A DNA stretch of 64,000 nt, from NCBI GenBank assembly GCA_010405405.1, contig MU004239.1, forward strand, positions 1,566,722-1,630,721, read 5' to 3'. The DNA comes from Microthyrium microscopicum. Taxonomy: Eukaryota. This document shows, one piece after another, positions 4,294 to 54,148 of this stretch (position 1 is the first letter of the stretch; each line of letters begins with the position of its first letter). A program made the position numbers and the translations under genes. The notes under the pieces are model-generated. The model was not told the origin of the DNA and searched no databases. It was given only the letters and a program-made list of their open reading frames with translations.

Positions 4294-6251
4294 ATGGCCA
4301 CTCAAGAGGAGGATCTCATCGACTACTCTGACGACGAGCTTCAAGCACCAGAGTCCACCGCAGCCGCGCCCAAGGCTGATGCCAAGAATGGAGCTGCTGC
4401 CGCGGCTTCTGGAGATGTCAACGCCAAAGGCAGCTACGCTGGTATCCACTCGACTTCATTTGAAGATTTCCTTCTAAAGCCCGAACTCACTCGCGCCATT
4501 ACGGATTGCGGTTTCGAACATCCTTCCGAGGGTTAGTCTTCTATACTCTTCTCACCAAACTCATTTTATCCTCGTCCGTCCATGTCCGCAGTTGGAAAGT
4601 CAAGTCAAAAAGTCAAGTCATCATTTAGAGGCAAACACCTCAAAGGATTCTGTAAAAATCACTCGTCTCTATGCGAGAGTCGTCTTGGAGGATGTTCCAT
4701 CATGGCAGGATTTCAGAAAAAGGACTTCGCGTCCATGGTCATCAAGACCTTTAGCTGGAAAACCCAGTCAAGTGCTTTTTAAGGGCTGGGAGCGAATCAT
4801 CGCAAACCTGGGATCTGGTTGATGACGATGACTGACTGGTATTATGGTGCGGGTGCGACACTATGATTGATCCGAAGTTCCAAAGCTTTCATGAGTACTC
4901 TGCACTGGAAACTCGAGGACAAATCAATTTTGACTAATACTGCGGACTGGATGGACATGCACTATCGATTCTATTTCTGTCCTGCGTAACTTTTCGATCG
5001 AATTCTAACATCCTCGACCCTCTTAGTTCAGCAAAAGGTCATCCCCCAAGCTATTCTCGGCACCGATGTTGTCTGCCAGGCCAAGTCCGGTCTAGGAAAG
5101 ACTGCAGTCTTCGTTCTTGCTAGTCTGCAACAAATCGAACCAGTCCAAGGCGAAACCTCTGTTCTTGTAATGTGTCACACTCGTGAGTTGGCATATCAGA
5201 TCAAGAACGAGTACGCTCGTTTCACCAAGTACATGCCCAATATCAAGACCAGTGTCTTTTACGGTGGTACTCCCATCCAAAAGGACATTGAGATCTTGCA
5301 GAACAAGGAGACTCACCCACATATCATTGTCGGAACTCCCGGTCGTCTCAACGCTCTCGTCCGCGACAAGAAGCTTCGTCTCGGCACTATTCGTCATTTC
5401 ATCCTCGATGAATGCGACAAGATGCTCGACCAAGTTGGTAAGCTTATCGATATCCCAATTATGACATAATACTTACTCCTCCAAGATATGCGTCGGGATG
5501 TTCAAGAAATCTTTCGCAACACCCCTCCACAGAAGCAGGTCATGATGTTCAGCGCCACCCTTTCTGCTGCCACTCGACCAGTGTGCAAGAAGTTCATGCA
5601 GAATCCTCTTGAGCTATATGTCGATGACGATACAAAGTTGACCCTCCACGGTCTTCAACAATATTACATCCGTCTTGGCGAAGATGAAAAGAACCGAAAG
5701 CTGAACGACTTGCTCGACACTCTCGAGTTCAATCAGGTCATCATCTTTGTTCGCAGCACTATGCGATGCACCGAACTTGACAAGCTCCTCCGAGAATGCA
5801 ATTTCCCAAGTATTGCTGTTCACTCTGGGTTGCCTCAAGAAGAACGGTAAGTTGATCACATCTCCCTTTAGGATCCCGCTCACAAGTTGCAGTATCAAGC
5901 GGTACAAGGAGTTCAAGGAGTTCAACAAGCGGATTTGCGTTGCCACCGACGTCTTCGGTCGTGGTATTGATATCGAGAAGATCAATCTCGCTATCAACTA
6001 CGATCTCGCAGGCGACGCCGATTCGTACCTCCATCGTGTTGGTCGTGCCGGGCGTTTTGGTACCAAGGGTCTGAGTATCTCGTTCGTCAGCACCGAAGGT
6101 GACGATGAGGTCCTCAAATCCATCCAACAACGTTTCGAAGTTAAGATTGAGTAAGTTCCGAGTCATTCGCTTGTGAACTTATCAGAACTAATACCTTTGC
6201 AGGGAGTTCCCCGAAGGCGGCGTTGATGCTAAGACCTACATGGCCAACTAG
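4294..6251 (+). CDS. SUB2: DECD-box RNA helicase SUB2/UAP56 (mRNA export and splicing), 5 exons, 438 aa
   Basis: Exons 4294-4531, 5027-5437, 5486-5846, 5893-6150, 6203-6251, all GT-AG. Motifs [41 protein letters not shown]; ends DAKTYMAN*. Confidence 0.97.
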
Positions 6252-50328: not shown

Positions 50329-50848
50329 AGAGGAGGTTGGTGAGCAGTGGATGACTAGTAGCGGTTAGGTAGAATGCCATACTGTTGAGACTCTTAGTGA
50401 AGTTGTTCGTGTGCTTCGTAGCTTCAGTCTACAGGTGTCAGTATGATCAAGCCCTCAATACATACGTAAAGAGTAAAGTAAACAAGAGTTCGTTATCATA
50501 GGTGTATTCATGTCTATCATGGATTGCGAGAGGGAGCCAGAGCACCATTCACCGTTGAAACTCAGCACACTTCCCAGCTCTTTACGCATTTGTAGATACA
50601 ACAAGGTCCAGTCTTCAACCACAAAGCTCGTTTTCATTGGACCTAAACAGCCACCACTCCTTCAATCCTACACGTTGGAAAGTCGTCAAGTTATTCGGGT
50701 TGGCAACAGCTGATAGCGAGCTTTAAGCAGCATGCTCATCCTGGTCTGAAGGCAATGACAGGATCTTCATCCTCTGGAGGTGCTGGAACACCATCGAGAA
50801 GTTCTGGATCGCTGACAATTTCTCCAAGCCAGCCTGGCAAATTGCTAC

Positions 50849-52978
50849 CTATAGCTTCTCTATCTGATGCAGGGGCCATTGGTAGCTTGATATCGGAGTC
50901 AGCTCGGTATCGAATTTTGGAGAAGAAACCATGGCGAGCGCCAGGTGCACTGGGAACGTACTGCACAGAAGTTAGTCAGGATCAACATATTATAACTGTT
51001 CGAGTTAAAATTGATACCGGGGAACAATTTGCTAAAATGGATGGAAATGAATTGCTGGAATGGCAAGAACTTACCTTTGCGTTTTCAATGAACTTGTAGC
51101 CGAAGGATTCGGTGAATTGATCAAGGATCTTAGGGCCGCGAGATCCTGGAAGAGAAAGCAGTTAGCATATTCCTACGATAAAGTACTCGCCCTTCAAAAA
51201 GTTTTACCATAGGGGTACTCCATTGGAACCACTTCTTCGTGTTCGTCTAGGTAGTGAAGCAGTGGCGTAAAGATCTTCCAAGAAGCATCAAGCTCGTCGT
51301 CACGGACAAAGTTGCTGTGATCGCCCTTGATTGCATCGAGGATCAGGGATTCATAAGCCTCGGGGATCTTGAGATCCGAGAAGCGACGGCGATATGTGAG
51401 ATCCAGCTCAGTGACGATTGTTTGCATAGTAAGACCAGGCAGTTTGCTGTTCATTTTGATGTAGACAGACTCGTTGGGCTGCACTCGAATGACCAGTTCG
51501 TTCCGTGGAATGTCCTTAAAGATTCCGGAGGTAACGTCTTTGAATTGGATTCGAATCTCGGTCTTTTGCTCATTCAAAGCCTTGCCAGCCTTGAAGATAA
51601 AGGGAACACCTTCCCATCGCTCGTTCTTGATGTAAGCAGTGACAGCGGCGAAAGTTGGGCAGCGAGATCCCTTGGGAACAGTGTCATCATCCTTATAAGC
51701 TGGCTTGGAGCCGTCCACAGATTTCCCATACTGGCCAATGATGGTATTGCCTGGTTCAATCGGTGGCATACATCTCAGCACGCGGACCTTCTCGTCTCGA
51801 ATGTCTTCGGCGGAGAAGGAGATGGGACGTTCCATGGTGAGAAGTGTGAGGACCTGCAACAAATCTAGAAAGCGTTAGACATGTCACAAAGTTCATCGTA
51901 AGGCTCCTACGGTTTTGCATGACATCACGGATGATGCCAAACTCGTCAAAGTATCCGCCACGACCCTCAGTGCCAAATGGCTCCTTGAAGACGATTTGCA
52001 CATTGTCAATGTGTTGACGATTCCAAGTCGCATTGAAAAAAGTGTTTCCAAATCGAAGGATGAGCAAATTCTTGACCATCTCTTTGCCCAAGTAATGGTC
52101 AATACGGAAAATCTCTTGTTCGTCCCAGTCAGGGCCAAGGGCGGCTTGTAGTTCGCGAGAACCTCCCAGATCCTTTCCGAAAGGCTTCTCGACCTGAATT
52201 CATCAGTTAGAGTATCCAAGACAGCATTGTAGCTCTCAACGTACTATGATACGCGCGATTCCTTTCTTTGGATAGCAATTGCGCTTTAAATGTTGGCTGA
52301 CGGGGATGAAAACGGATGGAGGAAGTGCCATGTAGAAGACTCGGTTTGTCTCCTCGCGGCCGCCCTCTAACTCCTCGAGATGTTTGAGTAGATTCTGGAA
52401 AGAATCGTCTTGGTCATATTGGCCAGCAATGTAGGTGCAAAGCTCTAGGAAATCGTCCAATTGATGTTCCATCTCAGGAGTAGGTGTCTTGATGTTGGAC
52501 TTGACCCGCTTGAGGTATTCCTCGTGGTCCATTTTGGTTCGCGCATATCCCACAATCTTGACATCCTTGGGTAGGAAGTGATTTCTGAACTATTGGCCTG
52601 TCAGTATATACGTCATATCGCAAGGGTTGCTCATTGGTAATCGGTGGCAGTAGATATGGCTGAATGGGCATACCAATCCGAAAAGAGCTGGGAACTATCA
52701 AAATGTTAGCGTAATCACAGGTTGTGGATATAATTGGCAATGAGCGTACCGTCTTCTTCTTTGCAAGATCACCCGAGGCGCCAAGTACGACAATGATTGT
52801 GTTCTCGGTAAGCTCGATGTTGCTGGAGAGCAATTAGCAGAGAATATCAAAAGGCGGATGAGTGCGTTGTTGCCGGCGGATATCCGCGGAGACATTTGGG
52901 ATAGAAGTATAGAGGTAGAACATACCCGGCATGAGGCTCGTCGGCGGGCATGACGATGGTGCTTCCTTGGGGAGGCAT
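50849..52978 (-). CDS. ZWF1: Glucose-6-phosphate 1-dehydrogenase, 8 exons, 512 aa; the last intervening sequence is a nested stwintron
   Basis: Exons 52978-52926, 52822-52750, 52694-52674, 52589-52245, 52193-51911, 51864-51208, 51145-51076, 50885-50849. Motifs [48 protein letters not shown]; ends ..[13 protein letters not shown]. The 3' exon assignment depends on the stwintron interpretation. Confidence 0.95.
50886..51075 (-). other. [D1,2] spliceosomal twin intron (stwintron) in G6PD
   Basis: Minus strand reads ..GCA AA G[GTAAGT..GACTAAC..TGCAG]TACGT..GCTGAC..AAG|C TAC CAA TGG. Inner intron 51074-50961 (114 nt); outer intron is G51075 plus 50960-50886 (76 nt). Confidence 0.8.
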
Positions 52979-54148
52979 TGTGGGATCTTGAGGATGGTCA
53001 AGGGGATGAAGAATGTCAATTGAAAGATGTTGAGGTAGAGGGAGAAAAGAAGTGGGAGAAAGATTGAGCAAGAGGGAGGAAGATGTCAGGGAGGTACGGA
53101 GATGCTAGCTCTGGCAGTTGCAGGTGCAGGATGCCAATGATTTAATCGATGACAAGACTGCAGTTGCAGGCACAATAATGCGGCGGATCCAATGGAAGGC
53201 CTGATTAGTGTACAATTGATATGCCGGGAGAGACGGGTACAGACGACTAAACACAGGCTGGTTCTGGGGCGGACTGTGGTCAGACTTTGGTGTTTGCAAG
53301 CAGAGACAGGGCGGTACCAGCTATCTTCTCTGGAGCTTGTAAGCTATCACAGCTATCACAGCTATGGTGTTTCAATCGTAAGCAATGAGGGGCAAGAAAG
53401 CCTCAATTTAGGTGGGGGATCTGAGGTACGTCAGGGCTCAAGTTGCTCTTGTTTCGAGAGATGATTCAGGTACTCGACTTTTGTTTCTTCTTCAATCAAC
53501 TGAAACTGATCTGCTCCAATTTTTAGCTATTTTCCCTCTCATACTCGACACAGTATTGTAGAACTTGCCTTCTTTTCGCCGAAATGAGATCACGATGATT
53601 GCCGTACGCCTTGAATCTTGATTGATGGTGTCGTGAACGATGCAATTGATGCCAGCAGTACATCATCATCACTAAGCTTTATACTGTGCTTACTACTAGT
53701 ACTATAAGGGTAACTATTTACTGTCACTACTTCAACCACTTCCATATTTGACTCTGGATGGTGACCGGTCAATGGAAACCTGCGTCTTGGACGCCGTGTT
53801 GGTGACCGGTCTAGGTATTTCGAGTAGTACTCTGGAGTATGAAGTGACGGATAAATATGGACATAACCGCTACTCGATCCTCCTGACGTTTTCATGTTTC
53901 TTGGAATATTTATTGTTCCAACCGAAAATAGAAAAGGTCACAAAGACTCTTTCTCCCACCATTGGCCTTGAAATACCCAGAGTGACCGGTTTAGTTTTTG
54001 GACTTTGAACCAGCTTCATTTGATTCTATTGTTCTCTGAGTGAACTCCAAGTCTGAAGCAGACGCACTCAGTTTTTCCGAGACATTGCGCTTTTCTTGGA
54101 CGTGGTTTCTTAAGTTTTGGTCCGGATTCAATCAGCATAGCCTTCGAA

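Follow-up and report, generated by a model that had tools for sequence, protein, structure and literature searches.

Stwintrons of the [D1,2] type are a well-described class of fungal intervening sequence: a single Hypoxylon strain has 117 of them, and the Hypoxylaceae as a family more than 1500 (PMC9024468), and almost all of the stwintrons described are of this type (PMC12403724). In the [D1,2] stwintrons of the Pezizomycotina, an internal U2 intron separates the first nucleotide of an external U2 intron's donor from the second, and the whole sequence has apparent GG..AG ends; a donor, a branch element and an acceptor are present separately for each of the two introns, and a splice that runs from the inner donor to the outer acceptor leaves the first G in the exon and shifts the reading frame (PMC9024468, PMC5587772). 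The last intervening sequence of the glucose-6-phosphate dehydrogenase (G6PD) gene of Microthyrium microscopicum resembles them in all of these respects, and we read it, with a probability of close to nine in ten (about 0.88), as a uniquely occurring [D1,2] stwintron that is removed in two steps. What sets it apart from the published examples is the gene, G6PD, and the Dothideomycete host, together with a two-step order that is here read from sequence signals. It nevertheless belongs to a well-described class and is no surprise for specialists.

Recursive splicing at ratchet points, known from Drosophila and from the long introns of vertebrates, also removes an intervening sequence stepwise and restores a 5' splice site once the first ligation has taken place, and the putative G6PD stwintron would share both features. 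It is unlike recursive splicing in that the splice-site element itself is physically interrupted, with its first G borrowed from before the inner intron (a distinction drawn in PMC5587772), and in that its two introns are short (114 and 76 nt) and recognised by intron definition. A closer parallel exists in the alternatively spliced [D1,2]/[A2,3] stwintrons of Helminthosporium solani and of DHA1 in Trichoderma reesei (PMC5587772), in which the two introns overlap by one G (..CAG/TACGT), as they do here; in contrast to those, the G6PD sequence has a C after the outer acceptor, and only the [D1,2] order is predicted to be productive. It does not appear to resemble the repeated 'sister' stwintrons of the Hypoxylaceae: the G6PD stwintron has no terminal inverted repeats, its fold is not unusual (z = -0.91; 33 of 200 shuffled sequences fold as well or better), and the 64-kb window, that is, the whole stretch of DNA that was analysed, contains no second sequence similar to it. 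No long inverted repeat was found in the 190 nt, the best being 13 nt at 85%. This 13-nt repeat (85% complementary; 50905-50917 and 51007-51019) links the outer and the inner intron and is too short to judge. Among the full texts searched, no stwintron paper names G6PD or Microthyrium, and both names are absent from one supplement file each of PMC9024468 and PMC12403724.

The G6PD gene lies on the minus strand. In a protein search, the exon at 51209-51862 matched 3091 G6PD proteins, and its best match was a 100% identical NCBI glucose-6-phosphate 1-dehydrogenase (P0001, 502 aa) from M. microscopicum itself. The matched proteins carry the Pfam domains PF00479 and PF02781, and the host gene is identified by full-length similarity, both domains and the YQW motif. 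The 3' part of the gene is laid out below, with the branch elements, donors and acceptors of both introns recognised by sequence match; every coordinate and motif that a sequence-only reading of this DNA had given proved correct when read on the minus strand.

51207..51146, minus strand: preceding canonical intron, placed from contig joints.
51076..51145, minus strand: penultimate coding exon, ending ..TTC ATT GAA AAC GCA AA (contig pieces 51076-51144 in the public runs X1 and X2).
50886..51075, minus strand: whole putative [D1,2] stwintron, the 190 nt missing from the mature mRNA; apparent ends GG..AG.
51075, minus strand: G1 of the predicted external donor, split from the rest of the donor by the internal intron and missing at the mature junction.
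50961..51074, minus strand: predicted internal U2 intron, 114 nt, with donor GTAAGT (51074-51069), branch element ACTAAC (50976-50971) and acceptor CAG (50963-50961).
50886..50960, minus strand: remainder of the predicted external intron, 75 nt (76 nt with G51075), with TACGT (50960-50956), branch element GCTGAC (50903-50898) and acceptor AAG (50888-50886).
50849..50885, minus strand: terminal coding segment, in which a C completes the Asn codon and is followed by TAC CAA TGG CCC..; stop codon at 50851-50849.
50519..50848, minus strand: 3' untranslated region, to the reach of an X1 contig; 50519-50885 is covered without differences.

The last two bases of the penultimate exon, AA, are the start of the Asn codon, and restoration of the frame needs the removal of G51075 along with the sequence downstream of it. 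Joined to TACGT, this G yields GTACGT, the same hexamer that serves as the donor of intron 4 in the G6PD gene.

The junction itself was sought in contigs from three public runs (X1, X2 and X3), all from 2014, which were used as assembled Logan contigs and placed on positions 50400-53200. None of these runs is on record as RNA and their RNA nature is a guess; however, because their contigs skip all seven introns of the gene, the runs were taken to behave as cDNA. Six of the seven joints have GT..AG ends when read on the gene strand (CT..AC on the plus strand). The seventh, 50885/51076, skips 190 nt and reads CT..CC on the plus strand, or GG..AG on the gene strand. It is free of positional ambiguity (both=0) and is found in one X1 contig (shorter side 69 letters) and in one X2 contig (29 letters), both of which are identical to the window with zero differences. 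The sequence-only reading had predicted precisely this mature junction, ..GCAAA/CTACC.. across a 190-nt GG..AG gap, and the two outcomes that it had named as speaking against it, a 114-nt splice alone or a different acceptor yielding YQWP, do not occur among the contigs of the runs.

The 190-nt junction is thus present in two of the three runs, the X3 contigs not reaching the stwintron region, and X1 and X2, as two studies of one year that may belong to one campaign, are not fully independent of each other. No contig of any run extends across 50886-51075, so that inner-only splice, 189-nt splice and unspliced RNA are all absent among the contigs, and 16 exonic bases account exactly for the depth counted in the bins over 50886-51057. 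Since contigs drop rare forms, their silence on splicing intermediates carries no information. One X1 contig has a loose end at 51760, where the letters resemble a sequencing adapter and which we take to be a technical remnant.

We infer the order of the two reactions from the arrangement of the splice signals. In the first step, the spliceosome would remove the internal 114-nt intron (GTAAGT..ACTAAC..CAG, 51074..50961); G51075 would then be joined to TACGT to form the donor GTACGT, and the 76-nt external intron (GCTGAC, AAG) would be removed in a second reaction. At its fourth position, the regenerated donor does not match the GURWGY consensus given in PMC9024468. In the genomic sequence, the G at 50961 belongs to both introns: it closes the first and opens the second, which runs from GTACGT to the AAG that ends at 50886. 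An [A2,3] route needs a G after the outer acceptor (PMC9024468; PMC5587772), and as the next exonic base, 50885, is a C, removing GTACGT..AAG first would leave CAC as the acceptor; the exclusion of this route by the sequence-only reading was therefore justified. At the level of sequence, all of the features by which a [D1,2] stwintron is recognised are present at this locus.

How often such an arrangement arises by chance was assessed by scoring an architecture composed of an inner AG followed by TRNGT, a CTRAY before the inner AG and another CTRAY before the end. With the first seven and the last three letters held fixed, 5 of 20000 dinucleotide shuffles of the interior produced this architecture in full. 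A scan of the 64-kb window on both strands found it complete at just one of 51 GGTRNGT sites, and that single site is the G6PD stwintron. The nested architecture is thus far beyond chance.

These controls bear most directly on the possibility that the 190 nt are removed by one-step, non-canonical GG..AG splicing, for example with U1 on GTAAGT, cleavage one nucleotide upstream and use of GCTGAC and AAG. Such an event would agree with contigs that display the final junction alone, and it would have precedents of a kind in the apparent GG-AG introns that make up 20 of about 92000 introns (about 0.02%) in an annotation of Ganoderma lingzhi (PMC11590231). Those rare fungal introns have the same apparent end dinucleotides but are counted as one-step events, whereas in G6PD a complete nested canonical intron explains the ends. 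One-step splicing would also leave unexplained the coincidence that the letters right after a consensus branch element and a CAG are the very ones needed to complete a donor with G51075, in an architecture as rare among shuffles as that described above, and a [D1,2] stwintron is expected to show apparent GG..AG ends (PMC5587772; PMC9024468). We therefore consider one-step removal unlikely.

Still less probable is a [D1,2] stwintron built around another inner intron. When all two-reaction routes that delete exactly the 190 nt by canonical GT..AG splicing were enumerated, three were found, and all of them start at the GTAAGT right after G51075 and are accordingly of the [D1,2] type, so that this geometry is the sole canonical way of removing exactly this segment. 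In the first route, the inner intron is 114 nt long, ACTAAC lies 16 nt before its end and the regenerated donor is GTACGT. In the other two, the inner intron ends at 50996 (79 nt) or at 50950 (125 nt); each has the formal GT..AG ends, and what is left after its removal again begins with GT and closes with AG. The 79-nt inner intron, however, lacks a branch element and would rebuild the donor as GTTATA, and the 125-nt one relies on the same ACTAAC, passes over the first AG beyond it and would rebuild GTGCAC. Among the three routes, only that with the 114-nt inner intron has full signals, combining a normal branch distance with a rebuilt consensus donor. Finally, an artefact, either an assembly error or another genomic copy without the 190 nt, is hardly credible: the analysis was confined to the 64-kb window and a processed second copy elsewhere in the genome is conceivable, but the identical junction occurs in two runs, in contigs from which the adjacent canonical introns are missing too and which show zero differences, and it restores the conserved C-terminus.

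The [D1,2] reading accords with the protein products as well. The observed 190-nt removal gives a coding sequence of 1539 nt and a protein of 512 aa with a single terminal stop and a YQWP end, and the junction provides an ungapped match to the C-terminus of the G6PD family. Removal of the inner 114 nt only gives 575 aa with a frameshifted, unrelated tail, so that the earlier frame arithmetic was right for both products, and the 189-nt splice from GT(51074) to AG(50886) gives 550 aa, again with an unrelated tail. A weak GAG acceptor would yield 518 aa, with six additional residues ahead of YQWP. The claim that this GAG is the only in-frame acceptor available to a single step holds for products that keep YQWP and fails overall, since other in-frame canonical acceptors further downstream give ..AKIEKL (505 aa) and ..AKL (502 aa).

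The public protein P0001 has 502 aa and ends in ..ENAKL, without the YQW motif. A script reproduced this end exactly when it paired the inner donor with the AG at 50856-50855, so that the last exon begins at 50854; no contig of the three runs supports this splice (50854-51074). Gene predictors that are limited to GT..AG cannot yield the 190-nt junction, and the public model consequently uses a later AG and ends early in ..AKL. The deposited model is thus a canonical GT..AG compromise that drops the conserved C-terminus. Its last three residues, AKL, by chance resemble a peroxisomal targeting tripeptide.

The conservation of that C-terminus is apparent from the 120 homologues listed, 74 of which have Y-x-W within the last 40 residues, 70 YQW and 64 YQWP; typical ends read ..GYKFSDAAGYQWP..KL. 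Judging by their lengths and tails, the 46 listed homologues that are without the motif look mostly truncated, fused or mis-predicted. In several Sordariomycetes (P0018, P0033, P0037, P0071, P0074, P0077, P0091 and P0096), G6PD and a Mediator Med14 domain protein form a single deposited model of 1500-1700 aa, which is probably an annotation merger of neighbouring genes. When the orthologue P0003 was aligned to human G6PD, its W501 fell on human residue 509, and the YQW motif aligns with human Y507-W509. Tyr507 and Trp509 belong to the C-terminal extension of the human enzyme and contact the structural NADP+, and W509A has been studied among class I (severe) deficiency mutants (PMC9303983). Because the human counterparts hold structural NADP+, the exon behind the stwintron encodes functionally important residues.

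The position of the stwintron was compared across 80 fungal G6PD loci from metagenome contigs, many of the short ones among which look like cDNA. The stretch from RGP to Y-x-W is in one uninterrupted frame in 74 of the 80; L033 is uninterrupted too, but has a different end, and four loci (L026, L034, L051 and L075) stop before the site, leaving 76 that are informative. There is no intron at the site in 75 of these 76, and among loci of at least 4000 nt, 41 of 43 are uninterrupted. The exception, L057, has a plain 56-nt phase-1 intron (4750-4805; GTAGGT..GCTGAT..CAG), which lies after the first base of a Gly codon that aligns with the Asn codon and is thus one nucleotide upstream of the stwintron junction (phase 2). 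L057 and the Microthyrium gene have five other intron positions in common, and a further intron near residue 231 is present in L057 alone of the two. The L057 protein is nearest to P0007 from Sporormia (Pleosporales), at 90%, and L057 was for this reason rejected as a close relative. Homology of its intron to either constituent intron was likewise rejected, as 497 of 2000 shuffles scored at least as high in the local alignment with the outer intron, and 1263 of 2000 did so with the inner one.

Five of the database G6PD models (P0005, P0026, P0095, P0112 and P0118) lose the YQW end directly after GYKF. P0005 ends in ..SDAAGRTSPL and looks like the read-through of a phase-1 GTAGG donor, as in L057, and P0026 (Xylaria venustula) diverges after GYKF. 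These five models may have introns or complex introns hidden at or near the same place.

The near-empty position across the loci indicates that an intron is rare here and that the position is probably young. The stwintron and the L057 intron could represent a further natural case of intron shift or re-gain via a complex-intron stage, although in the published [D1,2]/[A2,3] shift scheme (PMC5587772) the alternative position is one nucleotide downstream, whereas the L057 intron is one nucleotide upstream. Taken jointly, the proposals that a core metabolic gene here carries a young intron position specific to its lineage, that the intron was shifted or re-gained and that the splice order serves as a quality gate remain doubtful in our view. 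If they were true, the obligatory order could act as such a gate, as a mis-ordered splice would lead to an enzyme without the structural-NADP+ residues.

The same DNA was also inspected for other features. No Rfam family was found in 50400-51400 at E up to 1. After an inner-only splice, the shifted frame would be open for 74 codons through the 3' untranslated region (50736-50960, minus strand), and on the opposite, plus strand a stop-to-stop frame of 150 codons occupies 50647-51099. Both the plus-strand frame and the 74-aa frameshifted tail were rejected as coding, since neither has a Pfam family; the sole match, Fip1 with E 0.29, fails the cut-off. No feature from Pfam or Rfam is in competition for this DNA.

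In summary, this locus gives the [D1,2] stwintrons a further member, supported by transcripts and located in a housekeeping gene, and it illustrates how a nested intron overlooked by standard gene callers can be predicted from raw sequence by combining frame logic with splice signals. Similar cases may be concealed behind the odd C-termini of other homologues in the list. For Microthyrium itself, the transcript-backed junction corrects the deposited G6PD protein, which without YQW loses the counterparts of the residues that hold structural NADP+.
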